Virus record (IMG/VR): IMGVR_UViG_3300037419_001387
DNA: 62,853 nucleotides
Strand: one strand, 5' to 3'
Source of the DNA: a virus
Both the position numbers and the translations under genes were made by a program. Under the pieces are notes generated by a model that did not search any database, was not told the DNA's origin, and worked only from the letters and a program-made list of their open reading frames with translations. Below are positions 13,979 through 44,847 of the stretch, in pieces. Position 1 is the stretch's first letter. Each line of letters starts with the position of its first letter.

Positions 13979-13991
13979 AAGGAAGACCACC

Positions 13992-23236: not shown

Positions 23237-24447
23237 GCTACGTCATCAGGATCGAGCAGTTCGGCGGGCTGAAGCCGAGCTCCACCGCCAGGCGCCTGCC
23301 GGACAGCGCGGCGCAGGCGGCAAGCAACCTCGACCCGACTTCGAGCGAGTTCCGCCCGCTGGATGCCGACACGCAGGTGGTCGCGAACACCGGAGTCACA
23401 AACCCGAAGACGATCTACCGGCTTGACCGAAAGACCGATGGCTCGTTCAACATCGACATGACGACCGGCTGGATCGTGCGCGCCTCGGACATCAGCTACG
23501 TGCGCGGGCAGATCAACAACGACATCACCGAGCGCACCTACGCAACGTTCAATGACGCGAGCCAGGCGCCGCGGGTGTACGACGTGAACGACACCGTCAC
23601 CGGCCGCCAGCTCGGTGTGCCGGCGCCCACGACGAAGCCGACGATTACCGTGAACGTGGTCGACGAGTTCTCCACCGACGATCGCGCTTCGGCGATCACG
23701 GCCGCCTACGGCTCGGTGGCATCGGCCATTCGCGATGCGCTGTCGGACAACTGGCTTGGCGACACGAACCCGGGCACGACGACAACCGGCTACGTGAACC
23801 TTCAGGATGCGCCGTACACGCCGATCACGCAGGCGCAGGAAGCACGGGTCTACCGCCTTTCGAGCATCAACGGCGCGAACAATGGCGCGCTCGTGGACAC
23901 GTACAGCACCGCGGGACCGGACGCGTTCACGTGGGTGTGGGATGCGCAGGTGCATCCGTTCCTGGCCACCAGCAACGCCTCGTCGCCCAGCTGGCAGGGC
24001 GGCTCGGTCGGCCACTACTACGACCACCTGTGCATCGGGTTCTATGCGTATGGCCACGGCTACACGCTCAACCAGTCGCAACTCATCACCGCGCTGTCGG
24101 CAATTCCGCTTCCCGGCACCACCGACGGCTCCAAGCTGCTCACCTCGGACCAGATCAACGGCACCGACGGTATCGTCACGCGCCTGGTTACTTACATGGA
24201 CCCGGCGGGTGACGTGAAGCCGCTGGTGGACGCGCTCAAGCAGAAGGTCACCGAAATCAAGGTGCTGCTCGACGGCGGCGCGGTCGCTGCGGCCGGCGCG
24301 CAGATGGCCTCGTTCTACGCCAAGACCGACGTGCAGGCCGTCTTCGACGACGCGATCGCGAACATTGCGCAGACCATCTTCGCCACGGCCGACAACTGCT
24401 TCCACTCGTCGACGCCCGTGTACGACTATCCCGGAGGAGCACTCTGA
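23233..24447 (+). CDS. Virion structural protein (tail/nozzle candidate)
   Basis: GTG start overlapping the upstream stop. 404 aa. Confidence 0.55.
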   Translation: MSYVIRIEQFGGLKPSSTARRLPDSAAQAASNLDPTSSEFRPLDADTQVVANTGVTNPKTIYRLDRKTDGSFNIDMTTGWIVRASDISYVRGQINNDITERTYATFNDASQAPRVYDVNDTVTGRQLGVPAPTTKPTITVNVVDEFSTDDRASAITAAYGSVASAIRDALSDNWLGDTNPGTTTTGYVNLQDAPYTPITQAQEARVYRLSSINGANNGALVDTYSTAGPDAFTWVWDAQVHPFLATSNASSPSWQGGSVGHYYDHLCIGFYAYGHGYTLNQSQLITALSAIPLPGTTDGSKLLTSDQINGTDGIVTRLVTYMDPAGDVKPLVDALKQKVTEIKVLLDGGAVAAAGAQMASFYAKTDVQAVFDDAIANIAQTIFATADNCFHSSTPVYDYPGGAL

Positions 24448-28961: not shown

Positions 28962-29555
28962 ATGGATCAACGGATGCGATTACGGCATGCGATGGCCAAG
29001 CACCTCGGCAAGGTGATGACGCCGGAGATAGCGTCGGCGATCGAGACGGAGGCCTTCGCGGGCGATGAGCTGGCCATCATCGCGCCCGAGGTGGGCGCCC
29101 TCATGGGGCGGTCAGTCTCGCGCGAGCAGGTGGAACACCTCGAAGCCGCGCTGCAGAACCTGCCGCAAGCGGACTGCCCAGTGCGCCATCTTTTCGCGCC
29201 CGGAATCTATGCGCGGGAAATGACCATCCCTGCCGGCGTCGCGCTTACCGGAGCGGTCCACAAGACAGAGCACCTGAGCATCGTCTCGAAAGGTCGAATC
29301 GCGGTCACCACCGACGATGGCGTCAAGGTGCTTTGTGCGGGTGAGGCGTTCGTCTCGAAGCCGGGCGCCAAGCGAGCAGGCTTCGCGCTGGAAGAAACGG
29401 TGTGGACGACCATTCACCCGACGGACGAAACCGACATCGACAAACTGGTCGAGCTCCTCACGGAGTCGACCAACGCCGAGTTGCTCGGCGGCAGTGACAA
29501 CAGGCAATTGAGCGTCAGCAGCGCGCCCGCGCAAATTCAAGGAGATCCACTATGA
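28962..29555 (+). CDS. Hypothetical protein, cupin-like beta-barrel impression
   Basis: GGAGG RBS. Contains VRHLFAPGIYAREMTIPAGVALTGAVHKTEHLSIVSKGRIAV. Confidence 0.5.
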   Translation: MDQRMRLRHAMAKHLGKVMTPEIASAIETEAFAGDELAIIAPEVGALMGRSVSREQVEHLEAALQNLPQADCPVRHLFAPGIYAREMTIPAGVALTGAVHKTEHLSIVSKGRIAVTTDDGVKVLCAGEAFVSKPGAKRAGFALEETVWTTIHPTDETDIDKLVELLTESTNAELLGGSDNRQLSVSSAPAQIQGDPL

Positions 29556-30676
29556 GCTTCGGAGTAGCAGCAGCTGTCGGCGGCGGTCTGATCCTTGGCA
29601 GCATGATGAACAGCAAGACGCCCGACACGTCGGGTATGAATCAGGCTGCCGTGGACAATGCCAAGCTCGGGCAGGAACAGCTAGACTGGTACAAGCAGAT
29701 CTACGCTGAGCAAGCACCGATCCGGCAGCAGGCGATCGACGCGGCGCAGAAGGTCAGCGATGCGCAGCTCGCGGCGATGAAGACCGCGACCGATCAGGCG
29801 CAGAAAGACCAGGAATACCGCGAGACGGTGTTCCAGCCGCTCGAAAAGGGCATCGTCAACGACGCCGAGGCCTACGACACCGAGGGCAACCGGGAGCGCC
29901 TTGCCGGCCTCGCGCTGGGCGACGTGCGACAGAACTTCGCCACCTCCGGCGACATCGCGACCCGCAACATGGAACGCATCGGCGTGAACCCCAACGATGG
30001 TTCATTCGGCGCGACGAACAACGAGCGCGCGATCGCCGAGGCGGCCGCCGGTGCGGGTGCGGCGACGAAGGCGAGGCAGGATGCTCTCACGCTGGGCCAC
30101 GCGATGAAGATGGACGCCGCCAGCCTCGGCCGCGGGCTGCCCAGTTCACAGGCGACGCAAGCCGGACTGGCCATCAACTCCGGCAACAGCGCCGTCGGCA
30201 ATTCGCAGGTGCCGCTCAACGTCACGACGCAGGGGGCGAACATGGTGGGCGCGGGCTACACCGGCGCGGTCAACGCGAACAACAGCGCGGCCAACATCTA
30301 CGGGCAGATCGGCAACATCCAGAACAACTCGGGCCAGCAGAACAACGCGCTTTACGGCGCCGCCGGGCAGGCGTTCGGCGCGTACATGGCGTCCGACAAG
30401 AACATCAAGGAAAAGAAACGCCCCATGAAGGGCGAAATCGCGCTAGCGATCGTCAACAAGATGCCCGTGCAGAAGTGGCGCTACAAGCCGGACAGCTACG
30501 CGGCAGATGGCGGCAAGGACCACATCGGCCCCATGGCGCAGGACGTGCGCAAGGCCGCCGGCGAAAGTGCGGCGCCCGGCGGCAAGGTGGTGAACCTCGG
30601 AGACATCGCCGGGGTCACGCTCGCGGCGGTCCAGCAGCTCGACAAGAAGGTCGAGCGCCTCGCAAAGAGCCGGTGA
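29552..30676 (+). CDS. Virion protein with a hydrophobic Gly-rich N-terminus and a C-terminal S74-type intramolecular-chaperone-like segment
   Basis: Begins MSFGVAAAVGGGLILGSMM. Near the C-terminus, ASDKNIKEKKRPMKG...HIGPMAQDV...LDKKVERL resembles the SD..K.N motif of self-cleaving fibre chaperone domains. Confidence 0.55.
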   Translation: MSFGVAAAVGGGLILGSMMNSKTPDTSGMNQAAVDNAKLGQEQLDWYKQIYAEQAPIRQQAIDAAQKVSDAQLAAMKTATDQAQKDQEYRETVFQPLEKGIVNDAEAYDTEGNRERLAGLALGDVRQNFATSGDIATRNMERIGVNPNDGSFGATNNERAIAEAAAGAGAATKARQDALTLGHAMKMDAASLGRGLPSSQATQAGLAINSGNSAVGNSQVPLNVTTQGANMVGAGYTGAVNANNSAANIYGQIGNIQNNSGQQNNALYGAAGQAFGAYMASDKNIKEKKRPMKGEIALAIVNKMPVQKWRYKPDSYAADGGKDHIGPMAQDVRKAAGESAAPGGKVVNLGDIAGVTLAAVQQLDKKVERLAKSR

Positions 30677-30892: not shown

Positions 30893-30970
30893 AGGTACCT
30901 CCCGGTGCGGAGTGTATTGCACGAATTCAGAAACATCAGAGGGCGTAATGCCCTGCACAAGGAGAGCTCC

Positions 30971-32257
30971 ATGGGCCAAGCAGCACTCGCATTTCTTGCC
31001 GGCATGGGCGGCGGCTATATGTCGCAGCAGCAGCGCAACATCGAAAACAAACGTGCAGCCGATGCCGATCAGCGCGCGCAGGACTTCCACGACATCCAGA
31101 TGCGCAACGCTCAGCGCGACGCTGACCTGCAAGCCTCGCTCGCGCAGGCAGCTCGTCCCGCGCAGGTGGACGTCGGCGCCGGCGGCGTGACCAAGCCCGA
31201 CACGGCCGACAACATCGACGTTGGGCAGCCCGGCGAGCCCGGCAGCGATAACGGCCCGGCGCTGTCGCAAGGCACACTCGTCAATGGCACGGCGTACAAC
31301 AACAGCGGCGATGCGGCCACGGCAGCGGCCAGCTACAACGACCCGAACGCCGTGACACTGCGCCAGGTGCAGGCTTACCAGCAGGCCGGAAAACCCGTGG
31401 ACGCGATGAACCTGCAAAAGAACGCGCTCACGTTGAACAAGGAGCAGACCGAATTCGCGAGGACGCTCAAGGACGAGGGGGCGTTCGATGCCGCCAAGGC
31501 ACTTCGCGCCGGAGACGCCCAGGGCATGGTGGATGCCTTCAACCGCGGCGGCCAGTACAAGATCGTCGGCACGCCGGTGCTTACGCCGCGCGAGCGCGAC
31601 CTGCCGGGCTTCGGTAAGGTGATGACCTATGACGCGCAATACGACATCCAGAATCCCGATGGTTCGATCACCCACCGGCAGCAGAACTCGCACGACCTGT
31701 CGATGCAACTGATGCCGTACGAGAAGGCGCTCGACCTGCAGCGCAAGGGCCAGAGCGAATCCGATCGCGCCGAGTACCAGTCGCAATTGATCGACGTGAA
31801 AGGCAAGGTTGCCGATGCGCAGGCGCAGGCAGCGCAGGCCAAAGCCGAAGCCACGGCCGCGAGGAGTGCGCAGGGGCCGTCGCGCGAAGAACGGCTGCGC
31901 TGGACTTCACTGTTCCAGGACGCCGGGCGCCAGATGATCGAGACGCAAAAGACGATCAACCAGTTGCAGCGCGACCCCTTGTTCATGCGCAACGCGCGCA
32001 AGGATCCGAACGGCCCCGAGGCGAAGCAACTGTCGGACCTGCAAGCCACGTACGCCGACCACAAGCAAAGCCGCGATACCTTTCGCGGCCTGCTCGCCGG
32101 CGCGGCAACGGGCCCGACGCTTGGCAACGCTCCGAACGCGAAGCCCAGCACCTCGCCGCTTCCGATGCCGCAGAACAAGTCGGACCTGAAGGCCGGCACT
32201 GTGTACCAGACCAGCCGCGGCCCGGCCACGTGGAACGGTACCGCCTTCGAGCAGTAA
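30971..32257 (+). CDS. Internal virion / ejection protein candidate
   Basis: AAGGAGAG RBS. 428 aa, Gln/Ala-rich coiled coil. It directly precedes the giant gene. Confidence 0.55.
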   Translation: MGQAALAFLAGMGGGYMSQQQRNIENKRAADADQRAQDFHDIQMRNAQRDADLQASLAQAARPAQVDVGAGGVTKPDTADNIDVGQPGEPGSDNGPALSQGTLVNGTAYNNSGDAATAAASYNDPNAVTLRQVQAYQQAGKPVDAMNLQKNALTLNKEQTEFARTLKDEGAFDAAKALRAGDAQGMVDAFNRGGQYKIVGTPVLTPRERDLPGFGKVMTYDAQYDIQNPDGSITHRQQNSHDLSMQLMPYEKALDLQRKGQSESDRAEYQSQLIDVKGKVADAQAQAAQAKAEATAARSAQGPSREERLRWTSLFQDAGRQMIETQKTINQLQRDPLFMRNARKDPNGPEAKQLSDLQATYADHKQSRDTFRGLLAGAATGPTLGNAPNAKPSTSPLPMPQNKSDLKAGTVYQTSRGPATWNGTAFEQ

Positions 32258-32266
32258 AGGAGAGCC

Positions 32267-35200
32267 ATGCCCAAAACCTTCAGCTTCGAAGAAGCGCTGG
32301 CACCTGCTGCGAAGGCGAGCGAGGTCGACACGATCCGCGCCGGTGTGGCTGGCCCCTTGGGCGCCACCAACGAGCAGATCGACCGCGAAGCCGCTGCCAC
32401 GCGCGAGAACCTGCAAACCGTGACGGATCCCGAGGATCGCCAGAACTTGCAGGAGCACCTCGACGATCTTGCGAGGCACCGCGCGCTGCCGCAGCCCGGT
32501 GAAGCACGCGAGACGTTTTCGTTCGAAGAAGCGACCCGCCCGCCTGCCAAGCAGCCGCTTCCTGCCGACGTGACTCCTTCGAGCGCTGGTGCAGGGCGCG
32601 GCAGCGTGAACCCGCCTCTGGCCAGCCAGCCGCAGCCGCAACCCGAAGCGCCGCCGCCGCAGCCCGACTTCTCGAACGCATCCGGCGCCGGTGATGCAGC
32701 TGCGATCACGGCGCAACCGACGACCGACAAGGTCGGCTCGGTGCTCGAGCGCGTCCCGCCTGAATCGGTGGGCGCCTCGTACATGGACCCGCAGCCGATG
32801 GGCCAGCTCGACCCGAACGCTCCGGTGCACATTCCGGGCGCGCAAGTCTCGCCAGATCTGGCCACCGCGATGACGCAGGCACGCGCGAACCGCCTGCGCG
32901 CCGAAGCGCCTGCACCCACGGTCGGCAACGTGGCCAGCGGGATCCGCGACTCCGTGGCGCTGTCGGCATTGCGCACGGTGCAGGGCCTGCGCATGGAGTA
33001 CGCCGATGCCACCGGCGACAAGCAGACCGCCGACGAAGCCAAGCGCTTCATCGACCTGTCGAACAAGTGGGAGCAGCAAGGAACGCCCGCGTTCGACAGC
33101 AAGGCCGCAGAGCTCGCGTATGGCGGAACGACCGGGCTGGCCAAGAGCGCGCCAGGCATCGCCCTCGGTGTGTTGAACCCCGCAATCGGCGCCGCGTTCT
33201 TCGGTGGCCAGACGCAGGCCGAGGCATACGGCAAGTACCGTGCACGCGGCGGCACGCCGCTCGAAGCGAGCGCCGGTGGAGTCCTCGAAGGCGCAATCAC
33301 GGCCGGCACGGGTTACCTGCCGCTGTCCTTCATGGCCGACAAGCTGGGCAAGGCTGGCATGGGCCAGTTCATTGCCGGATTGGTGGCGCGTGACGTTCCA
33401 GCGATGACGGCGCAGGGCATCGCCACCGACCTCGTCGACACGGCGATCGCGAACCCGAAAAAGACGTGGGGCGACTTCCTCGCCGAGCAGCCCGAGCACA
33501 TCGCCCAGTCGCTGGCATCCGCTGCGGTGTTTTCGATCGCTGGTGCCGCAGGCCATGGAGCCGTGCGCGCGGGCAGCGCGATTGCAGACCGCACCGGATC
33601 GCCTTCGCGCCAGTTCGGCCGAGCGCTCGACCAGGACGTACAGGGCGCGCAATTTGCGCCTGCCGAAGGCGTTGCCGCTGGCGAGGCAGGGTTCACGCCG
33701 AATCCGAACCTTGCCGCCGCGCAACCGGACGCTGCAGCGCCAGCCGCACCAGCAGCCGCGCCGCCCCCGGGGCCGAACGACACCAGCATGGCGGCCGCGC
33801 AAAACGACATCGCCTCGCAGCTCGCGGCGATTCGCCCATTGCAGGATCGCGCGAAGGCGCTGCGCGACGCCGGCGAGCAAGCTGTGGCCGATGAGCTCGA
33901 CCGGCGAGCCGCCACGCAGTCGGCCGACATCGAATTGCAGGCGCACCCGGATGCCGGGCCCGACTTCGAAGCCGCGTACCGCTCGCTGCGCGCCAACGGC
34001 GCCAAGCCTGCCGAGGCCAGTGCCCGGGCTGGGATGCTCGGCGCCTTCGCTCAGCACGCCCAACAGGCGGGCATCACACCCCGCGCGATCGAGGCGGCCA
34101 CCGAGCAGGCCGGCAAGCTGCCGCTGGCGCGCGTGCCGCAGTTCCTCGACACGTATGTGTCAGCGCTCAATTCGGCGGGGATGGGCAAGCCGATCGAACC
34201 GCAGCAGATCGAGAACGCTTCGCGCGACGCCGGCGAGCAGGCCATGGGCCGTGCGATCGACGCGCTTTATCCGCAGGCTCGCGTCGAAGAACCGGCTGGC
34301 GAAGCAAGCATCCAGAAGAGGCCGGCCGCCGAGCAAGCAGCCTCACCGCAGGAAGCGGGCACCGCCTCACGCCCGGGCCTCGAGCGCTTCCCGCCGGAGT
34401 CTGGCAGCCTGGGCATCCCGCGCGAGCAGCTGCCGCAGATTCGCAGCGAGGACCACGGCGCGCTGGTGAACTTCCTCAATGCCCGCGAGATTCCGCATGA
34501 GATCCACATGCTGCCGCCCGAGGACTTGAAGCCCACACAGGCCGAGTTCTCCCCGCAGAAGGTGCGCGACATGGCCGGGGTCGAAAGTGATCGCAGCGTG
34601 ATCGCCTCGTCCGACGGCTACATCCTCGACGGCCACCATCAGTGGATGGCCGCCAAGGAAGGTGGCCAGCCCGTCAAGACCATCGTTCTGGACGCGCCGA
34701 TCCGCACCCTCATCGAGCACGCGAAGGAGTTCCCGAGTGCGCGCAAAGAAACCGACCAGACCCAAGCGGCGCAAGCCATTGCGCCTGACCAAGGAGCAGC
34801 GCGAGGTGGCGAAGCGGCTGGGGCTGACGCGCGAGCAACTGGTGCTGGCGCTGATGGAGGTGAAGGCGCCGCTTCAGTAGAACTGCTCGGCCGCGACTAT
34901 GGCTCGCTCGATGGAGGCGCCAAGCCCTTCTCCTCATCGAAGGAAGCGCAGGACGCGCGCAAGCTGACGCCGCACCTTCGCGTGGTGCGTGTCGAAGGCG
35001 GCTTCGCTCTGGCGCCAAAGAGCGCTGCGCAGCTGGCCGCCGAAGAGCGCTCGGCTCAGCGCCTGTCGCTGCCCAAAACCAGCGAGAAGGGCACGCCGAT
35101 CCCGGCGCACGCGTTCATCGCGGCCGAAGGCGGACTGCGCCGCGGCGAAATGGCCGACACCGGTTTCGATCGCAACGTGCGGGTCGGCAACCGCACGCTG

Positions 35201-38200
35201 TTCGCAGCACAGGGCAAGGGCATGACGATCGAGCAGGCTACCGAGCGCCTGATCGAGGCGGGCTACCTGCACCCCGGCGCGCTGCACAACGACGCGTACG
35301 AGCTGATCCGCAAGAGCGTGAAGGTGCCGCAGTACAACGCCGAAGGCCTGCACCGCATCGCCCAGGCCGAGCACGCGGCCCGATTCGAAGACTACCTACG
35401 CGCCGAACGTGAGCACGAGGACAGCCTTGTGCCGCTCGATGAGCGCGACGCCGAAGGCATCGTCGACAAGCTCACCCCTGAGCAGGAAGACGAAATGCGC
35501 GCGCTGGTCGCAGCGGCCGACGCTGCCGGCGTGGACACCGAGGCGATCCTTGAAGACGCGGCCAGAAAGACCGAGAATGGCACTGCACATGACTACTTCC
35601 AAGAAGCCCGCGGTACCCTCGAAGCAGCTGCTCGCCCTGTCGGCGAAGGAACTGCTCGAGGAGAAGGTGCTCGGGCAGGGCGGAACGCGGCCGAGCCCGG
35701 AAGCGCTGAACGCAGCGGCTCAGTACCTGGCGAACAAGGCGCGCCGCGAAGCGACCGAACGGGCGAAAAAGACGGCCTGAGCTGGCAGGTTCGCGACACC
35801 GGCACGCTGGCCGTGCACGGTGATCCCGCGAAGATCAAGGAAGTCCTCAAGGGCATTCCCGAGCGCTCGTTCATGGTGATGGACGGCGGCTTCATGATCG
35901 GCCGCACGCAGGCCGACAAAGCGCTCAAGATCCTGGAAGGCCAGCCCGAAGAATCGAAGGCCAAACCGCTGTCGGTGGGCACGACGCCCGGCGATGTCGA
36001 ACCCGTGTCCGTGAAGAACGGCATCGTTCACATCGGCAAGCACGAGGCGATCGACTTCGACAGCGGCGAGCCGGTGAAGGTCAAGGACGGCGCGAGCGAC
36101 GCCGAGATTCGCAAGGCCTTGAAGGACGCCGGCGCGCTGAGCAAGCGCCAGAAGTTCTTCTACGGTGGGCAGAATCGCGAAATGAGCGAAGGCCTTACGG
36201 TGTCGTTCGACGGGAAGACTTACCCCGTCGCGTCGATCGAAGATGCACAAGCGAAGTGGAACCAGTTTCGCGCCGCTGCATCCCGGGAAGGTGGCGGCGT
36301 GCGCGATGTCGGGAACGGAGTAGTCGTCAAGAATGCATCCGGGAAAGAGCTGGGCCGTATCAGCTACAACGGCCGCTTCCACCCCGCACAGCCGAGCGCC
36401 GACCTTCTCGGCGAAACGCCCAATGCAAGCCAGCAGGCCGCCGCGAATATCAGGGGCGAGAAAGCCGAGCAGGAGCAACGCCAGCAGCAGCAAGCGCCGA
36501 CGCCGGGCGAATTCCGCCTCACAGGCAGCAACCGTCCCGCAGACGAGGCAGCAACTCGCGGACAGCGCGACCTTCTGAGCGGCGACGACTTCGATGCGTC
36601 GATGCATTCGCGCGCCTTCTATTCGGACCTTGAGCGCAACCTCGGCTCGATCGACGCACGCGCGATGCCGGCCGACGGATGGGCTAACCGCATCAAGGGA
36701 CTCGTGAACGCGGGCAAGGTGAAGGCCGACGAAGTCGAATGGTCGGGCCTGAGTGACTGGCTCAAGTTGCAGGACGGCAAGGTCACCAAAGACCAGGTGA
36801 TGCAGTTCCTGAATGACAACGGTGTGCAGATCCACGAGGTTGTGAAGGATGACCAGCAGCATCCCGACGAAACCGGTGAAGACCAGCGCCGGCGCGAGCT
36901 CGAGGACATGAGCGACGAGCAGTTCGCCGACGAGGTGTACGACGAGCTCGGGATCGAATGGGAACACGGCACCGATCGCGACGACTACATCGACGACATC
37001 ATCCGCGAGCAGGAGCAGGCCTTCGACGCGCACGATGGCGCCGGCGAGCAGAGCAAGACGAAGTACGGCAAGTACACGCTGCCCGGCGGCGGAAACTACC
37101 GCGAGGTGCTGCTCACGCTTCCGGTGAAGCGCAGCACGGACGGCAGCGCGCCGCCCCGATACAGGAGTAGTCATTGGGACGAGGACAACGTCCTCGCGCA
37201 CATCCGCCTGAACGATCGCACCGATGCCGAAGGCAAGAAGGTGTTGTTCGTCGAAGAGTTGCAAAGCGACTGGGCGCAAGCGGCGCGCAAGCACGGTTTC
37301 GCCGAAGAGTCTCCAAACATGGAAGGCTGGAGCGCGAAGCTGTGGGACAACGGGGCGGTGTACGAAGTCAGCGATGCCAATGGCCGTTTCGTCACCAACG
37401 TGACGCGCTCGGACATGCCGATGACCGGAGGCTTCACGCCAGAGAACGCGATTGGAGTCGCCCAGCAACGCCTCGTACATGATCCGATGGCAACCGCACG
37501 CCAGGGCAAAGTCCCCGCAGCTCCGTTCGTCGGCAAGACCGACGCATGGCTTTCCCTCGCCCTGAAGCGCATCGTGAAGATGGCGGCCGATGAGGGCTAC
37601 GACCGCGTCGCCTTCGTGAACGGCGAACAGAGCGCCGACAGGTACGACCTTTCTAAGCAAATCAGTCGCGTGCGCTTCGAGGACAACCACGCACTCGGCG
37701 TCGGGCGCGCTGACCTCGAAGGCCCGCACACCAGCGGCAACCTGTTCGCGTACGACCTCGATGGCAAACAGGTGATCGACAAGCGCGTCAACGACGCAGC
37801 GAAGGAATTGCCGGACCTGATTGGGAAAGAAGCTGCCGCGAAGTTGTTGGAACAGCCTGGGCGCAGCGAGCGCACGGGCGGGGGCAACGAATCGCGCGTG
37901 AAGGAACTGAAGGGCCTAGACCTCAAGGTCGGCGGCGAAGGCATGAAGTCCTTCTACGACAAGATCGTGCCGGCCGTGGCCAAGGACGTCCTGAAGAAAT
38001 TGGGCGGCGGCTCATTGCACGACATCGACCTTTCGCAGCCTCGATTCGTCGTGACGCGTGATAGAAACGGCCGAACATGGGGCTACGAAGACGAAGCTGG
38101 CGCTGGGGAATCCGGCTTCGCAACAAAGGAAGAGGCGACCGCAGCAGCGACTCGCGACAACGCAGCCAATAACGGCGACGCGGGCAAACAGATCGGCTTC

Positions 38201-41200
38201 GACATCACGCCGGCGATGCGCGAGAAGGCGGCCGAAGGCATGCCGATGTTCCGCCGCGGCGGCTTCGGCGCTGGCAATGCCGACGTCGCGCGCGTGCAGG
38301 CGATCACCGACCGCATCGCTGCGAAGTGGACGAACGGCCCGAAGATCGAAGTCGTTCCGACTCACCACGATCTTCCCGGCGAGCATCCGCGCAACACCTC
38401 GGGCCTCTACATGAACGGCAAGGCCTACCTTGTCGCCGATCGCCTGGGCAGCAAGGCGGCAGTGGAGAACGCCGTCGGCCGCGTCGTCGCGCACGAGGTC
38501 ATCGCGCATCACGGGCTGCGCGAATTGCTCGGTCGCGAGGACTGGTACAAGCTGATGGGCAACATCAACCGAGCGATCGAGCAGGGCAACGTCCCCTTGT
38601 CGAAGATTCGCGACGAGGTGCGGCGCCTGTACGTCGATCGCAACGGCCGCTACATGCTGACCGATGCACGCGAGGCCGACGAGATTGCGGCGCGCGCCGT
38701 CGAACAGGCCGTCGATGAGAACGGCAACTTCCGCCCCGGCTTCGGATTCTTCAAGGCGGTGTTCGCCAAGATTGCGCAGTTCCTGCGCGACCACGGCATC
38801 AACATCACGTTCACCAACTCCGAGCTGCAAGGCATGCTGGTGCTCGCGCAGCGCCACCTCGAAGCAGGTGAGCGCACCGCCGGCCGCGGCCAGATGGCGA
38901 TCGCCGCAGCAGACCGCGGCGTGGAGTCGCGAGACATCCGCGAGGAAGGCCTGCCGCGCGACATCCCGCACCTTGCGTCAACGCACATCCTCGACAAGCT
39001 CAAGGAGCACCCCGACTACAAGGCAGCGAAGGCCGGCGACATCGGTGCGGCCGTGAACGTGGTACGCGACGTCGTGACGCCAGAGAACCTGCAAGTGGCC
39101 CGCGAGAAGTTCGGCAAGGACTCGATCTTCGTCGCGCCGATGGCCGAAGAGGCGAGCGGCAAGAACGCGCTGCCGCAGGCACTCGCAGCCCTGTACGCCA
39201 GCGAAACCGGCGGCAGCGTCGACCGCGACATCGTGCAGACCAACAAGGCCTTCCACACCGGAGCGAACGCGATGCAGCGAATGATCGCGCGGCCGCTGTT
39301 CGATGGCCCGGTGAAGCCCGGCGGCAAGTACGTGATCGTCGACGACGTCACCACCATGGGCGGCACGCTGGCCGAGCTTGCCGACCACATCCGCGCCGCA
39401 GGCGGCGACGTTGTAGGCACGGCTGTCATTGCAAATGTGGGCCGTGAAAGTACAATGGACGCACGCCCCCAGGACGTACGCAAGATCAAGGACCGCTACG
39501 GTGACCAAGTCCGCCAACTCTTCCACGCAGAGCCTGCAGCCCTCACGGCCGCAGAGGCGCGGTACGTCCTCGGCCACCGAAACGCTGACGAGCTCGCAAA
39601 TCGCGCAGCTTCGGCAAGCGAAGAGCGCGCAGCTCGACTTCGCTCTAAAGGCCTTCAGCAAGAAGGCGTAGGCGACGACTTCAGCGCGCCCGGCGGCGCG
39701 CAATCCCGAACCGCAGAAGCCACGCCCGAAGAAGGCGACAAGTCATCGTCGCTGCCGGGACACTCCCTCATCGTTCGCGCTGCGGACCTGACGCACGGGC
39801 TGCTGCGCGAAGGCAAGATGTTCGCCACGCCGATGAACGCCGGATCGCCAAAGGCGCGAGCCGTTGCCCAGGAGTTCGCCAACAGCATGCGCGTCGCACG
39901 CGACCAGTGGCAGCGCATGGATCGCGTGCTCACGAAGGAATTCAGCGACGAGGACCGCAAGCGAATGTGGGAAGCCGCGGACGCCGAGAACGTCGAGCGC
40001 ATGCGTGCATCGGAGGATCCCGAGTACAAACGGCCCGCGAACGTCGGCCTCGACTCGCTCAGCCCGAAGGAGCGCGCGGCGGTCGAGCGGCTGCACGAGT
40101 ACGGAGAGGAGCTGCTGCAGCGCGCGCGCGACGTCGGCATGTTCAAGGGCGAAGGCCTGCCTTATTGGGCGCCACGCATGGCCGTGATGATTGGCGAGGA
40201 TGGCGAGCTCGGAAGGATCCCGAGCGACTTCCAGCATGCCACCAGCGAGAAAAGCGGCCGCAACGTCACGACGACGTCGTCGAACCTGAAGCAGCGCAAG
40301 TACCTCACTGCGGCCGAGACGGAAGCGGCCGCCTCGGAACTGGCCAAGTCCAAGGGCGGCGCCGGCGCACAGCTGGTGCGCGACATCCGCACGATGCCGC
40401 TGGCCATGGCACGGCTCGAACGCGCGATCGCCGGCCGCGAACTAATCAACCAGATCAAGGAAATCGGGCTGGCCACCGGCGAGGCGACCACCTCCTCGAA
40501 GGAAGGCCCGGGCTTCTTCACGCTGGACCATCCCGCCTTCAAGGAATACCGCTTCCGGCCCGACATCAAGATGACCGAGGCGCGCGACAAGCACTTGTGG
40601 GAAGGCTTGCAGAAATTCGCCGAGCAGATCGGTGTCACGCACGAACGCATCGAGAAGCTGCGCGGCCGCACCTGGGGCTACGCCACCAACGACGGCCACG
40701 TCGTCACGCGCTTCGGCGGTCCGGAGACGGTGCTCACGCACGAGCTCGGCCATCAGCTCGACTTCAAGTACGGCCTGGCCGACATGCTCACGCGCAAGGG
40801 CGCCACTGCAAAGGAGCTGCGCGCGCTGGCGGACCTGCGTTACGAAGGCATCGAGACGAGCGACTACTTCAAGAAGTACGTGCGCCGCGGCACCGAGAAG
40901 ATCGCGAACATGGTGCACGCCTACGTGCACATGCCAGAACGCTTCAAGGAGGTGGCGCCGCAGACGTACAAGGCCTTCGAGCAGTTCCTCGACGCGCATC
41001 CCGAGCTCGCCGGCCTGCGCAAGATCAAGCCGTCGCTGGTTCTCAACTCCGACGCGATCAAAAAGCGCCCGCCCGGCGAAGACTTCGACGTGCTGCCGCT
41101 TTACATCAGCAAGGACTTCGAAGGCCCGTTGAAGGCGGTGCTGTCGAACCAGGATGGCGAGTGGTACAAGGCCTACATGCTCCTGAAGAGCAAGGCGATG

Positions 41201-42766
41201 AGCTCGATCATGTTCTCGCCGCTGATCCACAACATGGTGATTTGGGGCCGCGCGCTGGCCTACTCACCGTCGAAGGTCGGATCCACCTACCTTTACTGGA
41301 AGGGCTCGTCGCTCGAGCACGATCCGCAGTTCGTGCGCGGCGCGATCAAGGACGGCGTCGTTCCGATCGGCTACAACCGCACGACGGCCATGGATGCCGT
41401 CGACCTCGCGGGCAAGGTCGAGAAGATGGGCGCGTGGGGCGACCCGAACGAAAGCTGGGTAAACCTGTCGCTGCAAAAGGCCGGCAACTGGATCAAGGCG
41501 GGCCTCGGTGACAAGACGAAGGCGGGCATGGACGCCGCCGGCGACTTCTGGCACCACACGCTGCTGTGGAAGCAGATCCAGAACCTGCAATGGGGCATCT
41601 ACGCCGACGCGAAGCAGCACTACATGGCCAAGGGCATGAGCGAACCGGCCGCTGGCGCGCTGGCTGCGCACTTTGCCAACCGCTACGCCGGCGTGGTGGC
41701 GCAGGAGAACCAAGGCGAGCTCGCGCGCAAGGCGATGAATATCCTGCTGTTCTCGCGCAGCTTCAACATCACGAACGTCGGTGTGTGGCACGACATGCTC
41801 TTCGGCTTGCCCGCGGGCCTGAAGGCGCAGTTGTATGAGAAGGCGCCGAAGGATGAGGCCGATCGCGCCGTGTGGGCCGCGCGCCGCAAGGCGGCATCGG
41901 CACTCGTGCTCGATGCGGCATTCGCGATCATGGCCACCTCGCTCGTCCAGGATCTGGTCGACAAGCTGCGCGGCACCGACGACGAGGAAGCCAAGAAGGG
42001 CTACATCGATCGGCTGCGCGACATGGCCGAGGGCATCCACGATCGGCCGCTCGACCTCGACAGCTACAACCCCTATCGGTTGTCCTCGACGTGGCGCAAC
42101 GAGCCGGGCAAGAAGGACCGCGTCGACTTCGGCGCCGACGTGGGCGGGCGCCACCAGTACATGCGCCTGCCCACCGGCAAGGCGATCGAGGACATCATGA
42201 ACTGGGCGCTGCACCCGGGCGAAACCTTCAGCGCCAAGATGGCGCCGATGCCCAAGGCCGCATGGCAGGTGCTCCAGAACGACAAGGGCTTCGGCGTGCC
42301 GGTGCGAGATCCCAACGGCAGCTTCTACAAGGCGGTGTGGGAGTCGACAGCGCACGTGCTCAAGGCGCAGATGCCTTCGGACGCGATCAAGCAGGCATGG
42401 GACGTCACGCACGGCTTTGGCGAGGACATCGACAAGAAGAAGCTCGCGGGCAACGTCACCGGCTTTACCTTCAGCCAGGGCCATCCGGGCGGCCCCGAGG
42501 CCGAGGTGGCGGCGAAGGCCAACGAGCGCTTCGAGGCATCGAAGAAATACACAATGCAACTCGTCAAGGACGACCTGAAGCACGGCGACGAAGACATGGC
42601 GATCCAGCGAATGCAGGACATCGGGATGTCGAACAGCGAGATCCGCATGGCACTGCGCCGCGCCGAGACGCCCAGCTCAGGCCTGTCGGCGAAGGCGCGC
42701 AAGAACTTCGAACAGCGCGCCAACGACGCCGAGCGCCGCGAAATGGAGCTCCAGCAGAACCGGTAG
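32267..42766 (+). CDS. Giant 3499-aa multidomain (polyvalent) virion-module protein: ParB-like nuclease domain, two HExxH segments, a phosphoribosyltransferase-like domain and hydrophobic segments
   Basis: A single uninterrupted ORF. Motifs seen: LKPTQAEF...GYILDGHHQWMAAKEGG (about 34520-34670), SSHWDEDNVLAHIRL...LFVEELQSDWAQ (about 37170-37280), VVAHEVIAHHG (about 38490), KYVIVDDVTTMGGTLAEL (about 39330) and LTHELGHQLD (about 40740). The N-terminal segment is Gly-rich and hydrophobic. Confidence 0.85.
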   Translation: MPKTFSFEEALAPAAKASEVDTIRAGVAGPLGATNEQIDREAAATRENLQTVTDPEDRQNLQEHLDDLARHRALPQPGEARETFSFEEATRPPAKQPLPADVTPSSAGAGRGSVNPPLASQPQPQPEAPPPQPDFSNASGAGDAAAITAQPTTDKVGSVLERVPPESVGASYMDPQPMGQLDPNAPVHIPGAQVSPDLATAMTQARANRLRAEAPAPTVGNVASGIRDSVALSALRTVQGLRMEYADATGDKQTADEAKRFIDLSNKWEQQGTPAFDSKAAELAYGGTTGLAKSAPGIALGVLNPAIGAAFFGGQTQAEAYGKYRARGGTPLEASAGGVLEGAITAGTGYLPLSFMADKLGKAGMGQFIAGLVARDVPAMTAQGIATDLVDTAIANPKKTWGDFLAEQPEHIAQSLASAAVFSIAGAAGHGAVRAGSAIADRTGSPSRQFGRALDQDVQGAQFAPAEGVAAGEAGFTPNPNLAAAQPDAAAPAAPAAAPPPGPNDTSMAAAQNDIASQLAAIRPLQDRAKALRDAGEQAVADELDRRAATQSADIELQAHPDAGPDFEAAYRSLRANGAKPAEASARAGMLGAFAQHAQQAGITPRAIEAATEQAGKLPLARVPQFLDTYVSALNSAGMGKPIEPQQIENASRDAGEQAMGRAIDALYPQARVEEPAGEASIQKRPAAEQAASPQEAGTASRPGLERFPPESGSLGIPREQLPQIRSEDHGALVNFLNAREIPHEIHMLPPEDLKPTQAEFSPQKVRDMAGVESDRSVIASSDGYILDGHHQWMAAKEGGQPVKTIVLDAPIRTLIEHAKEFPSARKETDQTQAAQAIAPDQGAARGGEAAGADARATGAGADGGEGAASVELLGRDYGSLDGGAKPFSSSKEAQDARKLTPHLRVVRVEGGFALAPKSAAQLAAEERSAQRLSLPKTSEKGTPIPAHAFIAAEGGLRRGEMADTGFDRNVRVGNRTLFAAQGKGMTIEQATERLIEAGYLHPGALHNDAYELIRKSVKVPQYNAEGLHRIAQAEHAARFEDYLRAEREHEDSLVPLDERDAEGIVDKLTPEQEDEMRALVAAADAAGVDTEAILEDAARKTENGTAHDYFQEARGTLEAAARPVGEGTARGEGARAGRNAAEPGSAERSGSVPGEQGAPRSDRTGEKDGLSWQVRDTGTLAVHGDPAKIKEVLKGIPERSFMVMDGGFMIGRTQADKALKILEGQPEESKAKPLSVGTTPGDVEPVSVKNGIVHIGKHEAIDFDSGEPVKVKDGASDAEIRKALKDAGALSKRQKFFYGGQNREMSEGLTVSFDGKTYPVASIEDAQAKWNQFRAAASREGGGVRDVGNGVVVKNASGKELGRISYNGRFHPAQPSADLLGETPNASQQAAANIRGEKAEQEQRQQQQAPTPGEFRLTGSNRPADEAATRGQRDLLSGDDFDASMHSRAFYSDLERNLGSIDARAMPADGWANRIKGLVNAGKVKADEVEWSGLSDWLKLQDGKVTKDQVMQFLNDNGVQIHEVVKDDQQHPDETGEDQRRRELEDMSDEQFADEVYDELGIEWEHGTDRDDYIDDIIREQEQAFDAHDGAGEQSKTKYGKYTLPGGGNYREVLLTLPVKRSTDGSAPPRYRSSHWDEDNVLAHIRLNDRTDAEGKKVLFVEELQSDWAQAARKHGFAEESPNMEGWSAKLWDNGAVYEVSDANGRFVTNVTRSDMPMTGGFTPENAIGVAQQRLVHDPMATARQGKVPAAPFVGKTDAWLSLALKRIVKMAADEGYDRVAFVNGEQSADRYDLSKQISRVRFEDNHALGVGRADLEGPHTSGNLFAYDLDGKQVIDKRVNDAAKELPDLIGKEAAAKLLEQPGRSERTGGGNESRVKELKGLDLKVGGEGMKSFYDKIVPAVAKDVLKKLGGGSLHDIDLSQPRFVVTRDRNGRTWGYEDEAGAGESGFATKEEATAAATRDNAANNGDAGKQIGFDITPAMREKAAEGMPMFRRGGFGAGNADVARVQAITDRIAAKWTNGPKIEVVPTHHDLPGEHPRNTSGLYMNGKAYLVADRLGSKAAVENAVGRVVAHEVIAHHGLRELLGREDWYKLMGNINRAIEQGNVPLSKIRDEVRRLYVDRNGRYMLTDAREADEIAARAVEQAVDENGNFRPGFGFFKAVFAKIAQFLRDHGINITFTNSELQGMLVLAQRHLEAGERTAGRGQMAIAAADRGVESRDIREEGLPRDIPHLASTHILDKLKEHPDYKAAKAGDIGAAVNVVRDVVTPENLQVAREKFGKDSIFVAPMAEEASGKNALPQALAALYASETGGSVDRDIVQTNKAFHTGANAMQRMIARPLFDGPVKPGGKYVIVDDVTTMGGTLAELADHIRAAGGDVVGTAVIANVGRESTMDARPQDVRKIKDRYGDQVRQLFHAEPAALTAAEARYVLGHRNADELANRAASASEERAARLRSKGLQQEGVGDDFSAPGGAQSRTAEATPEEGDKSSSLPGHSLIVRAADLTHGLLREGKMFATPMNAGSPKARAVAQEFANSMRVARDQWQRMDRVLTKEFSDEDRKRMWEAADAENVERMRASEDPEYKRPANVGLDSLSPKERAAVERLHEYGEELLQRARDVGMFKGEGLPYWAPRMAVMIGEDGELGRIPSDFQHATSEKSGRNVTTTSSNLKQRKYLTAAETEAAASELAKSKGGAGAQLVRDIRTMPLAMARLERAIAGRELINQIKEIGLATGEATTSSKEGPGFFTLDHPAFKEYRFRPDIKMTEARDKHLWEGLQKFAEQIGVTHERIEKLRGRTWGYATNDGHVVTRFGGPETVLTHELGHQLDFKYGLADMLTRKGATAKELRALADLRYEGIETSDYFKKYVRRGTEKIANMVHAYVHMPERFKEVAPQTYKAFEQFLDAHPELAGLRKIKPSLVLNSDAIKKRPPGEDFDVLPLYISKDFEGPLKAVLSNQDGEWYKAYMLLKSKAMSSIMFSPLIHNMVIWGRALAYSPSKVGSTYLYWKGSSLEHDPQFVRGAIKDGVVPIGYNRTTAMDAVDLAGKVEKMGAWGDPNESWVNLSLQKAGNWIKAGLGDKTKAGMDAAGDFWHHTLLWKQIQNLQWGIYADAKQHYMAKGMSEPAAGALAAHFANRYAGVVAQENQGELARKAMNILLFSRSFNITNVGVWHDMLFGLPAGLKAQLYEKAPKDEADRAVWAARRKAASALVLDAAFAIMATSLVQDLVDKLRGTDDEEAKKGYIDRLRDMAEGIHDRPLDLDSYNPYRLSSTWRNEPGKKDRVDFGADVGGRHQYMRLPTGKAIEDIMNWALHPGETFSAKMAPMPKAAWQVLQNDKGFGVPVRDPNGSFYKAVWESTAHVLKAQMPSDAIKQAWDVTHGFGEDIDKKKLAGNVTGFTFSQGHPGGPEAEVAAKANERFEASKKYTMQLVKDDLKHGDEDMAIQRMQDIGMSNSEIRMALRRAETPSSGLSAKARKNFEQRANDAERREMELQQNR

Positions 42767-42790
42767 AAAAGAGAAATGGCTGGCCCGCGG

Positions 42791-43099
42791 CTACTCGCTG
42801 CGGCCCGGTCCAGTCTCGAACTCGGAGGGGCACGTCATCGACGCGCTGCGCAACTCCGTGTCGCGCCAGACATAGCAGTGCTGCGTGTCCGTCAGCCCAT
42901 GGGGCAGCGCGATGGGCACCTCGATCACGATCAACTCGCCGGCGCTGGTCGCGTGGTGCGTCACCTTCGGCGACTGCGCAGCGAACTCTTGCGAGCGCTG
43001 CACGCGATCGGCCATGCGTTCTTTCGGTGCGAGCGCGTCGGCACGTTCACAGCCGGCAAGCAGCGCGAGCATCACGATGATCAGGATCCGGAGCAGCAC
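42791..43099 (-). CDS. Lipoprotein, att-proximal cargo gene
   Basis: MLLRILIIVMLALLAGC carries a lipobox. It is convergent with the giant gene. Confidence 0.6.
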   Translation of the reverse strand: MLLRILIIVMLALLAGCERADALAPKERMADRVQRSQEFAAQSPKVTHHATSAGELIVIEVPIALPHGLTDTQHCYVWRDTELRSASMTCPSEFETGPGRSE

Positions 43100-43108
43100 G
43101 GGCGCACC

Positions 43109-43318
43109 TTAACTCTCGCCATCGGCGCAGGGAAGGGGCTCGAATGCCCGGCAACCTTCGTCGGGATCGATGAACAAGAACCTGCCTCGTTCGGCGCAAG
43201 TGACCGTGTTGTTCATCACCGCGGACGTGACAGGTTGAGTGCCCAGGCCGAGGAAATGCTTGCAGCTCCAACAAGGCGTCGGTTCGTCGCCGGGGTAGAA
43301 GACAGTCGGGTTGCCCAT
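43109..43318 (-). CDS. Small Cys-rich protein, att-proximal cargo gene
   Basis: 69 aa. Contains CWSCKHF...TCAERG...GCRAFEPLPC, with AGGGAA upstream. Confidence 0.5.
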   Translation of the reverse strand: MGNPTVFYPGDEPTPCWSCKHFLGLGTQPVTSAVMNNTVTCAERGRFLFIDPDEGCRAFEPLPCADGES

Positions 43319-43374
43319 TTCCCTGCGCTTTCCCCGAGTTTCACGTGGAACCTCGATTTCCCCTCTGTAGGCTC

Positions 43375-43399
43375 TGGCCTGCCCGGAGGGAATCGAACC
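43375..43399 (-). other. tRNA 3'-end-like segment: candidate attP core
   Basis: The minus strand reads GGTTCGATTCCCTCCGGGCAGGCCA (T-loop, T-stem 3' strand, acceptor 3' strand, discriminator, CCA). It lies 43 nt beyond the integrase stop. No matching 5' acceptor strand is nearby. Confidence 0.5.
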
Positions 43400-43441
43400 G
43401 TCGGTAGGGCATTGCTCGGTGTTGCTACGTCTGTCGAGCGT

Positions 43442-44629
43442 CTAACCGCCTGTCTTGGCCTTGCTGGGGATGGCGTTCGTTTCCCCGAAATTCTCCCCGG
43501 CAAGGAAGGCCTCCAGCTTCGCCATTTCCACCGCATTCTGTCCGCCGTCGATCCAGCGCGAATAGGTGCGCAGGAACTGCTCGACGCTGTGGCCCATCTG
43601 CTTCGCGGCCCAGGCTGGCGTCGCGCCGGCCATGAGCATCATCGTCGCGTAGGTGTGCCGCGTCTCGTAAGGGCTGCGGTAGCGGATTCCGAGTCGCTTG
43701 AGGCATGGCCGCCAATACAGTTCGCGCGGCGGCTCGTCGTCGGTCCAGCGCTCGCCGGTGCGCGGGTCAGGAAATATCCAGCCTTCGGGCCTCATGAACG
43801 TCGAAGGCTTCTGCGCCTTCAGAAGATCGAGCGCCCGAGGGTTGAGCTGCACGTGCCGGGCGCGGTTAGTCTTGGTGCTCGCCTTGTGCTCGCCGAGCAC
43901 GATTCCCTCGCCGATCGCGATGGTGTGTCGTCGCCAGTCGACCATCGGCCAGCGCAGCGCGAGCGATTCCGACGTGCGCGCGCCGGTGTAGAACTTCACG
44001 CCGAAATATCGCGCGATCTGCTCGTTGTAGTGCTTGGCCAAGCCCGCGATGATTGCCTCGGCCTCATCGCGATCGAACGGGTCCGGCTCGGGCTGCTGGT
44101 GCGCGAACGAATCGATGCCAGCAGTCGGGTCGATCAGCATTACGCCATCAGCGATGGCCAGTTCGATTGCGCTGCGCAGCACACTCATCTTGTTGTTGCG
44201 CGTCTTGCCAGTCCAGTCCTTCTCGCCGGCCAGCGCGGTGAGGATGTCGCTGCGCACCAGCGCGCGAGCCGGGCGCGAGCCGATCTTGTCCTTCCACCAA
44301 TCGCGCGCGACACGGTAGCCCTTCAGTGTCGACGGGGCCTTGCCGACGAGCGAGTCGTACCAGACGTCCAGCCGATCGCCCATCGATACGCCGGCAGCCG
44401 TCGTCGCATTCTTCGAAGCGGGGAAATAGTCGGCGTAGACGAAAGTGCCGAACCGGATCTTGTCGCGAATCTCGGCAGCGATACGCGCCGCATACCGAAG
44501 GTTCGCCGGAGTTGGCCCCATCGGCTTGCCGTCGGTCTTGAGCGTTTCCTTGCGGTGCTCGCCCTCGAAGGTGAAGTGAATGCGGATCGAGTTCGCCCGC
44601 GCCTCTACGCCACCCCGGTCTTCGCCCAT
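43442..44629 (-). CDS. int: Tyrosine integrase (lambda-type with an arm-binding N-domain)
   Basis: GVEARANSIRIHFTFEGEHRKETL is arm-type. Catalytic motifs include ARTSESLALRW, YETRHTYATMML and GHSVEQFLRTYSRW. The start was trimmed to MGEDRGG. Confidence 0.85.
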   Translation of the reverse strand: MGEDRGGVEARANSIRIHFTFEGEHRKETLKTDGKPMGPTPANLRYAARIAAEIRDKIRFGTFVYADYFPASKNATTAAGVSMGDRLDVWYDSLVGKAPSTLKGYRVARDWWKDKIGSRPARALVRSDILTALAGEKDWTGKTRNNKMSVLRSAIELAIADGVMLIDPTAGIDSFAHQQPEPDPFDRDEAEAIIAGLAKHYNEQIARYFGVKFYTGARTSESLALRWPMVDWRRHTIAIGEGIVLGEHKASTKTNRARHVQLNPRALDLLKAQKPSTFMRPEGWIFPDPRTGERWTDDEPPRELYWRPCLKRLGIRYRSPYETRHTYATMMLMAGATPAWAAKQMGHSVEQFLRTYSRWIDGGQNAVEMAKLEAFLAGENFGETNAIPSKAKTGG

Positions 44630-44847
44630 GTCTCGTAACCCTCCAGGTCCATCAATATCTCGCCGCCACGACGGACGTATTGCCGGCCTTCCAGCCACAC
44701 GCCCCGGCTCATCTTCGTTCGCACGGCATTATCGGTGTAGCCGGTCAGGGCGCAGAAAAGCTCAATGCGGACGTACCGGGACGGCTGCACTTGCATGACA
44801 GCGCGGCCGTCGTTTGCGGCGTCCGTGGGTCGTTGAAGGGCGCTCAT
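44605..44847 (-). CDS. xis: Excisionase-like protein
   Basis: 80 aa, immediately upstream of int and overlapping it. Contains RIELFCALTGYTDNAVRTKMSRGVWLEGRQY...LEGYETW. Confidence 0.6.
   Translation of the reverse strand: MSALQRPTDAANDGRAVMQVQPSRYVRIELFCALTGYTDNAVRTKMSRGVWLEGRQYVRRGGEILMDLEGYETWAKTGVA

Follow-up and report, generated by a model that had tools for sequence, protein, structure and literature searches.

The virus record IMGVR_UViG_3300037419_001387, a DNA stretch of 62,853 bp that was analysed as a whole and is called the window below, carries a gene for a giant protein of 3499 amino acids without a single cysteine; this protein is likely to be packaged into the phage head and ejected into the host, as a member of the phage polyvalent class. 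Like the polyvalent proteins (Iyer et al., 2017; PMC5512222), it joins many unrelated enzymatic domains in one polypeptide that is encoded among late virion genes. At least two domains of unrelated activity, each with its own homologues, are found among a type I phosphoribosyltransferase-like (PRTase-like) domain above the Pfam gathering score (GA), a ParB-like domain, two domains with HE..H motifs and a module of about 550 amino acids; together with the late-gene context, they bear out the polyvalent-type, multidomain virion-operon protein that had been proposed in an initial annotation of the DNA letters and their open reading frames (ORFs). The class itself, with PRTase, ParB-type and zincin domains, has already been described (Iyer et al., 2017; PMC5512222), and giants at such an operon position are known to be virion proteins. 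New are a C-terminal module, here called the carrier, that has neither a curated family nor a representative in cultured phages; its fusion to a giant-family N-terminal half; a putative zincin inserted into it; the recognition of the 550-aa module as a very common, unnamed one; and a cysteine-free signature that is common to the ejection proteins of T7 and N4. The giant gene, its candidate partners and the end of the operon are located as follows:

32267..42766, plus strand: giant gene, 3499 aa, 0 Cys (from the ORF list and translation, the G+C content of third codon positions [GC3] and the ribosome-binding site)
29552..30676, plus strand: 374-aa virion protein, 0 Cys, matching phrog_8003 'virion structural protein'; candidate ejection partner
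30905..32257, plus strand: 450-aa protein, 0 Cys, directly upstream of the giant gene; candidate ejection partner
43442..44698, minus strand: integrase (phrog_1, E 1.5e-51; GC3 0.81), end of the virion operon

The giant ORF consists of 3499 codons and one stop and takes 16.7% of the window, in agreement with the single long frame of about one sixth of the genome that had been reported. GC3 lies between 0.76 and 0.90 in all eleven 300-codon blocks examined, with second positions near 0.45; a Shine-Dalgarno sequence, AAGGAG, is found 6 nt 5' of the ATG; and every segment of the protein has in-frame homologues elsewhere. For these reasons the ORF is regarded as a true gene. That it is a chance open frame or an assembly fusion, with shorter true genes, is so improbable as to be nearly negligible: long spurious ORFs are common in GC-rich DNA, with 104 ORFs of 80 aa or more overlapping the region, and the two closest relatives show a frame change (L001) and a split gene call (L009), yet coding periodicity persists through all blocks examined, homologues continue in frame along the whole protein, the L009 split coincides with a run of N (an assembly gap) with both parts in one frame, and other members of the giant family likewise reach 2000-4700 aa. 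Every motif quoted in the initial annotation was found in the translation in the order given, namely (amino acid positions) TFSFEEA at 4 and 83, LKPTQ at 754, DGHHQW at 788, SSHWDEDNVLAHIRL at 1634, EELQSDW at 1663, HEVIAH at 2076, VIVDDVTTMGGTL at 2356 and HELGH at 2825.

The distal position in the virion operon, also part of the earlier description, is confirmed on both sides. Upstream genes on the same strand match PHROGs of the large terminase, the portal, the major head protein, two internal virion proteins, tail proteins and 'virion structural' proteins; downstream, the strand switches to the integrase gene, which marks the phage, a short-tailed one, as temperate. A 620-aa plus-strand ORF at 42776-44638 is an antisense shadow of the integrase gene (GC3 0.62 vs 0.81), which leaves the giant gene as the final one of the virion operon.

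Cysteine is absent from three adjacent proteins, encoded between 29552 and 42766 (374 + 450 + 3499 = 4323 residues), whereas the 22 other proteins of the window contain 63 cysteines in 8096 residues (0.78%); at this rate the giant protein should have about 27, and the probability of finding none by chance is near 1e-12. Cysteine-free, too, are 20 of 23 other giants, gp69 of phage BcepMigl (0 of 4658 residues) and the giant of relative L009, and the carrier family as a whole has 9 cysteines in 71,519 residues. The proven ejection proteins T7 gp15 (0 of 747), T7 gp16 (0 of 1318) and N4 gp50 (0 of 3500), gp51 and gp52 lack cysteine entirely, while their non-ejected neighbours do contain it. The word 'cysteine' is absent from the polyvalent-protein paper (PMC5512222) and, by occurrence counts, from three papers on ejection proteins. 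The absence of cysteine would give compositional support to the passage of an unfolded or loosely folded chain through a channel and the oxidising periplasm, and it may serve as a marker by which ejected phage proteins are recognized from sequence.

Several known systems show a comparable arrangement. As in BcepMigl, a 560-aa internal virion protein (gp63 in that phage) and the 374-aa protein (35% identity to gp66, a 'virion associated protein') are followed by a giant, which takes the place of the 4658-aa gp69. With the Lessievirus giants (Bcep22 gp75, BcepMigl gp69, JC1 gp69) the giant protein shares the place at the operon end and a 58%-identical ParB-like domain, and JC1 gp69 was detected in virions by mass spectrometry with 51 unique peptides (PMC9144972). 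Unlike BcepMigl gp69, it has no SLT, methylase, SNF2 helicase, PBECR1 or LPD38 domain; the proposed likeness to Bcep22-type giants thus extends to the syntenic place and the ParB-like segment, while the alignment with gp69 is limited to aa 704-824. In phage phi24B, the 2811-aa gp47 with LPD5, LPD1, LPD38 and MuF-C domains is abundant in proteomics and invisible in cryo-EM, and an encapsidated ejection protein has been proposed (bioRxiv 10.64898/2026.04.10.717836); the portal of the window is 33.5% identical to portals of Stx2-converting phages, to which phi24B belongs, but the domain set of the giant protein differs from that of gp47, to which it is likened by description and not by sequence. 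The N4 virion RNA polymerase (vRNAP), with about 3500 residues in loosely linked domains, is ejected through a channel of about 35 Å together with two smaller ejection proteins encoded adjacent to it (PMC13434306). The window resembles N4 gp50-52 in its three adjacent cysteine-free proteins, with a giant of similar length; unlike N4 gp50, the giant protein lacks an RNA polymerase module, and no similarity in sequence between the two was detectable. Finally, in contrast to the members of the class of Iyer et al., it has no match to the Pfam models of LPD1-40, MPTase-PolyVal, DdrB-ParB and ART-PolyVal (E<=5), and its 550-aa module and carrier have no curated family; its tie to the PolyVal hub domains runs through homologues that carry them and through the fold similarity of the carrier.

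The C-terminal carrier module

The carrier was delimited by comparison with P0010, a 1217-aa protein of the T7-like contig L008, and is interrupted by an insert:

39806..40552, plus strand: carrier, first part (aa 2514-2762); a two-block alignment to P0010 sets the borders
40553..41095, plus strand: 180-aa insert with HELGH (aa 2763-2943), interrupting the carrier
41096..42748, plus strand: carrier, second part (aa 2944-3494), 48% identical to P0010 over 552 aa

The last 1000 or so amino acids are predicted to be mainly alpha-helical by AlphaFold (predicted local distance difference test [pLDDT] 82, predicted template modelling score [pTM] 0.75). The earlier description of a C-terminal part with hydrophobic helices was right about the helices; the part is not markedly hydrophobic, with a single 19-residue Kyte-Doolittle window above 1.5 at aa 3207-3232. 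This region has no match in PHROGs, Pfam or NCBIfam, nor in 50,697 phage records (tblastn, last 999 aa), and a megablast search of the same records with the entire giant gene also gave no match. Homologue searches in a collection of 5.8 billion sequences were done with three protein segments. Homologues of the carrier, more than 230 in number, come from metagenomes and measure 700-1800 aa; their contigs reach about 116 kb, and many have 40-70 kb. The homologues share two blocks, in front of which ART-PolyVal, RadC/JAB, PRTase, GGDEF, GNAT or PF18823 domains are found. Searching BFVD with the carrier model (Foldseek) gave 49 matches at E<=1e-3 (best 8.9e-11), most of them later chunks (suffix _2 to _4) of long phage polyvalent proteins, whose UniProt names refer to LPD, ART-PolyVal, zeta-toxin, helicase and RelA/SpoT domains. 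Among PDB folds, Foldseek found none at E<0.3 for the carrier; run on both AlphaFold models (the carrier, and the 550-aa module with the HExxxH domain that follows it), it gave none below E 0.1.

Beyond metagenomes, the carrier family occurs in genomes of Alpha-, Beta- and Gammaproteobacteria, including the cultured Azospirillum strains Sp59b and B2RO_4, the latter on plasmid pTA1.3. This plasmid (L026) is complete, with 36,097 bp, and its carrier-family protein shows 36% identity over query aa 7-991; pTA1.3 may be a phage-plasmid. In contig L008, P0010 is preceded by a tail-tube pair, by a 190-aa internal virion protein and by a 740-aa SLT protein, and is followed by the tail fibre. It therefore occupies the third slot of the internal-virion-protein block, the place of gp16 in the gp14-16 block of T7, whose gp15 and gp16 share the lack of cysteine.

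Enzyme-like modules and the exchange of cassettes

The middle of the giant protein, upstream of the carrier, contains three domains in close succession:

36617..38257, plus strand: enzyme-like module (aa 1451-1997) with motifs SSHWDxxN, EExQSDW, NGxQSAxRYDL and KVGGEGMxxFYDxIVP
38267..38911, plus strand: HExxxH domain (aa 2001-2215; HEVIAH at 2076), with candidate third ligand E2139
38939..39655, plus strand: type I PRTase-like domain (aa 2225-2463), PF00156

For the 550-aa module (aa 1451-1997), 1065 homologues were found at E<=1e-3, and its sharp borders are shared by nearly all of them; among cultured phages it is limited to two or three. It is found together with ART-PolyVal, LPD3, LPD23, LPD37, LPD38, MuF_C, RadC and other domains. 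About 50 positions are invariant or nearly invariant across 56 sequences. Conserved polar and charged residues lie in PGGxNYRE, SxH, N, H, R, ExQSDW, K, GYD and QxAxRY, and glycine, proline and hydrophobic positions are conserved as well, as in GGxGMxxFY. No Pfam, NCBIfam or PADLOC model matches the module, no PDB entry matches it by sequence when it is searched together with the HExxxH domain, and its AlphaFold model (pLDDT 80) has no fold match in PDB by Foldseek. A weak, local likeness to GNAT or ASKHA-kinase proteins (probability <=0.7 over about 58 columns) was judged to be noise, and assignments of SSHWDxxN and EExQSDW to PD-(D/E)xK nucleases, 2OG-Fe(II) dioxygenases or 2H phosphoesterases were rejected for wrong spacing or want of a supporting match. 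From its conservation pattern the module is read as an enzyme, to which no chemistry is assigned.

Two HExxH modules had been described initially, which was not borne out: HEVIAH is an HExxxH motif, only HELGH is a true HExxH, and profile and fold searches confirmed a zincin fold for neither. The H, E and H of the HExxxH domain are invariant in 13 aligned homologues; the wider family has HExx(G/A)H.GL in 29 sequences and HExxH.GL in 11. E2139, 58 residues downstream of HEVIAH, is nearly invariant, and the predicted topology (AlphaFold) is a helix, three strands and a long helix that bears the motif. A sequence-profile search of PDB, with the domain alone or joined to the 550-aa module, gave no match, and neither did Foldseek. 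An HExxGH hexapeptide forms the zinc site of M49 dipeptidyl-peptidase III, and the longer spacing is thus not disqualifying for a zincin. The HELGH insert is present in six carrier-family members and absent from most; among these six sequences HExGH, D, E(K), H and H are invariant, and the motif falls inside a helix predicted by AlphaFold. The insert matches Peptidase_M90 weakly (E 0.05) and has no PDB match by sequence profile or Foldseek. It is plausible, not proven, that both HE..H domains are zincins.

The type I PRTase signature noticed earlier stands on firmer ground. PF00156 scores 35.1 bits (GA 26.3) over aa 2314-2395, including VIVDDVTTMGGT, the phosphoribosyl pyrophosphate-binding (PRPP-binding) loop with its acid pair; the domain matches phrog_22413 at 7e-58 and adenine PRTases in PDB at E 0.006. 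For the giant protein, NCBIfam and PADLOC gave nothing beyond generic PRTase matches, and a PLxRFG 'tail-700' identity was dropped when the NCBIfam model showed no match.

These modules come and go as entire cassettes among relatives. In contig L009 (NCBI JAWVHA010001118.1, 63.5 kb), the same neighbours flank a 52%-identical giant that lacks aa 1998-2496, with the HExxxH and PRTase domains; relative L001 has a 77%-identical carrier and lacks aa 1427-1993; and P0021 is a separate 1483-aa protein in which an HExxxH domain and a PRTase (63% identical) are joined to a carrier. Among 26 other giant-family proteins examined (23 of them longer than 2000 aa), none has the carrier or the exact domain combination of the giant protein, and two have the ParB signature. 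The giant gene thus has the look of a fusion, in which an N-terminal half of the giant family is linked to a protein of the carrier family. As a separate observation, the early/lysogeny region of L001, the closest relative, contains a reverse transcriptase gene (RVT_1; 12909-13985, minus strand) whose neighbours encode a DUF87 ATPase and a DNA methylase; the window has no counterpart at E<=1e-5.

The exchange of cassettes bears on an alternative in which the giant protein is mainly a structural ejectosome or channel protein, its entire length forming a conduit across the envelope, and its 'enzyme' modules are degenerate or used only for wall breach and self-processing, not against host defences or metabolism. 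An ejectosome-type role has been proposed for gp47 by the phi24B authors, the carrier of L008 stands in the third internal-virion slot of T7 gp16, the DGHHQW of the ParB-like domain differs from the DGHHR of solo ParB-like proteins, and HEVIAH deviates from HExxH. Yet no lysozyme or SLT domain was found in the giant protein, the acid pair of the PRPP loop and the HE..H residues are strictly conserved, the many invariant positions of the 550-aa module are enzyme-like, and close relatives (L001, L009, P0021) differ by swaps of whole cassettes, which fit cargo better than a fixed structural role. This alternative appears unlikely, but it is the most probable of those considered; an ejected polyvalent protein with enzymatic cargo is preferred.

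The N-terminal half and neighbouring genes

The first 700 amino acids form an N-terminal scaffold with two TFSFEEA copies, a family signature and a Gly/Ala-rich stretch, which is common to a large family of phage proteins of 2000-4700 aa; a ParB-like domain and a run of small domains follow:

32276..32533, plus strand: TFSFEEA twice (aa 4-10 and 83-89), at the extreme N-terminus
32558..32617, plus strand: LPADVTPSSAGAGRGSVNPP, giant-family N-terminal signature, the same motif in many giants
33074..33616, plus strand: Gly/Ala-rich, moderately hydrophobic region (aa 270-450; A 21%, G 15%)
34376..34756, plus strand: ParB/sulfiredoxin (ParB/Srx)-like domain (aa 704-830; LKPTQ, DGHH), from homology to phage giants
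34886..36196, plus strand: run of small domains conserved in the giant family (aa 874-1310; 280 representative clusters)

The duplication of TFSFEEA near the N-terminus had been noted before and is correct; relative P0240 has two copies and P0255 three. Giants of the family (also N-termini of P0251-P0385) carry two or three copies of short aromatic-acidic motifs that differ by lineage (TFSFEEA, DWGDE, GLFDD, EFWK.D, PFTG.LD, NPFS.P.FG), often followed by the signature LPxGVxPSxAGxGRGxVNP, which lies near the N-terminus of many giants. The repeated motifs could be a docking or packaging signal. The Gly-rich hydrophobic N-terminal region of the earlier description corresponds to aa 270-450, with four segments of Kyte-Doolittle 1.07-1.43 within conserved stretches of the giant-family consensus. 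The run of small domains (aa 874-1310) recurs at similar relative positions in the 280 clusters (E<=1e-3), mostly of 2000-4700 aa.

The ParB-like domain shows 58% identity to aa 1070-1190 of BcepMigl gp69 and matches giants of many Ralstonia, Pseudomonas and Klebsiella phages; altogether 482 phage records match, among them solo proteins of about 130-195 aa in large myoviruses, some of which are annotated as structural. The alignment was built from these phage-record matches; a search with aa 440-860 gave 10 proteins, a low number for which we suspect the Ala/Pro-rich part of the query, using up word candidates. ParBc_2 (PF08857; GA 23.6 bits) matches 5 of 14 homologues below its threshold (E 0.0014-0.043), over the half of the profile that contains LxPTQ...DGHH; the window's own sequence gives no match to ParBc_2, and a profile search gave no PDB sequence match for the domain. 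R, PQ, TQ, SxD and DGxH are invariant in the alignment, as is the arginine of GIPR. In the ParB/Srx superfamily, a conserved phosphate-binding arginine follows a Gly-x-x motif (DGHHR type); most solo phage versions have DG(H/S)HR, whereas the giant protein and its giant-borne relatives carry DGHHQ, with glutamine in place of this arginine. The ParB/sulfiredoxin motif that had been recognized is therefore present as LKPTQ and DGHHQW and is echoed in sub-threshold matches of homologues, though not in a match of the protein itself; we lean towards a ParB identity for aa 704-830. In the metagenomic proteins P0246 and P0248 the domain is fused to a Mu-type portal (PF06074), which places it physically at the portal in some phages.

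Since the ParB-like segment is 58% identical to proteins annotated as 'DarB-like antirestriction', a DarB-type protein, whose methylase and helicase activities would guard the DNA on entry against type I restriction, has to be weighed. The DarB label of gp69 stems from its Eco57I-type methylase and SNF2/helicase domains; neither a methyltransferase nor a helicase is detectable in the giant protein with Pfam and NCBIfam, and its significant alignment to gp69 is confined to aa 704-824. A DarB-like protein in the strict sense (N6-adenine methyltransferase and SF2 helicase) is refuted at the domain level, and the alternative retains very little probability, if slightly more than a spurious reading frame.

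Among the neighbouring genes, the 374-aa protein has a hydrophobic N-terminal segment (Kyte-Doolittle 1.62 at residue 1), and the 450-aa protein, with no PHROG or Pfam match, has a homologue at the matching position in L009 (51% identity). The portal is 33-39% identical to portals of Achromobacter phage CF418P1, Vibrio phage douglas and Stx2 phages, and Ralstonia and Burkholderia phages are also among the records that match it. Further upstream, the adjacent genes at 23233-24447 (404 aa) and 24447-26129 (560 aa) correspond to successive stretches of phrog_511 'internal virion protein', the first to positions 321-470 and the second to 459-861 of 862; this looks like a protein split over two genes, which other phages have as one. 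Downstream, a 102-aa gene (42791-43099, minus strand) runs towards the end of the giant gene, and just 24 bp separate the two stop codons; it is the sole downstream gene conserved with L001 (35% identity). No terminator-like site was found after the giant gene, and no tRNA in the window.

Proposed delivery of the giant protein and its meaning

As an ejection protein, the giant would be packed inside the capsid with the two cysteine-free proteins encoded just upstream; on infection it would pass the portal-tail channel before the DNA or along with it, its loosely linked domains strung like beads, comparable to N4 vRNAP. The helical carrier, perhaps along with the Gly/Ala-rich N-terminal part, would serve packaging and envelope crossing, a role equivalent to that of gp16 in T7 or, in N4 vRNAP, of the non-catalytic parts. 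The middle modules would be cargo, exchangeable between phages and active once inside the newly infected cell. Here the ParB/Srx-like domain could be a nucleoside triphosphate-binding or DNA-nicking unit; the PRTase-like domain may make, consume or sense a PRPP-derived nucleotide, the only published idea being that a nucleotide is produced or sensed as the DNA enters; and the 550-aa module would be a cargo enzyme. One or both zincin-like domains would probably cut the chain into working units, as proposed for the class (Iyer et al., 2017; PMC5512222). The purpose is likely early take-over or counter-defence.

As a caveat, several points weigh against this interpretation. The argument for packaging and ejection proceeds from relatives and from the cysteine-free signature, and other reasons for avoiding cysteine are conceivable, among them the oxidising interior of the capsid or the demands of reversible unfolding. 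Neither the ParB assignment nor the two zincin assignments reach curated thresholds. Neither T7 gp15 and gp16 (no significant BLASTP match) nor any PDB entry matches the carrier in sequence or fold, so that the equivalence of the carrier with gp16 is one of position, in one contig; in contig L010, a carrier-family member is encoded in the head module near the capsid gene. Comparing the carrier family with the C-termini of 24 giants (the 23 and BcepMigl gp69) by hhalign gave a probability of 1.2%; since this profile-profile comparison is not significant, the link between the carrier and the C-termini of other giants is a structural one.

In a wider and more tentative interpretation, which we hold to be possible but doubtful, the carrier would be a divergent branch of one widespread 'ejection vehicle' that also underlies LPD38-type C-termini and plays the role of gp16 in some T7-like phages. 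If so, any cysteine-free cargo fused in front of a carrier would get through the tail into the cell, and the absence of cysteine would be a simple predictor of ejected phage proteins from sequence. Cheap to apply, this criterion could flag ejected proteins in phage genomes of every kind. The PRTase, like the 550-aa module, would on this interpretation be an injected enzyme acting on nucleotide-based host immunity; with more than 1000 homologues and neither a family model nor a structural relative, the 550-aa module is a clear target for biochemistry. The carrier, with a confident model and more than 200 natural variants bearing different cargo, offers a natural experiment on which cargo can be delivered, and its occurrence in cultured Azospirillum (Sp59b; pTA1.3 of B2RO_4) makes experiments feasible. 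The locus thus bears on the passage of megadalton amounts of protein through a channel of about 35 Å in podoviruses, and on the roles of the enzymes that they inject.

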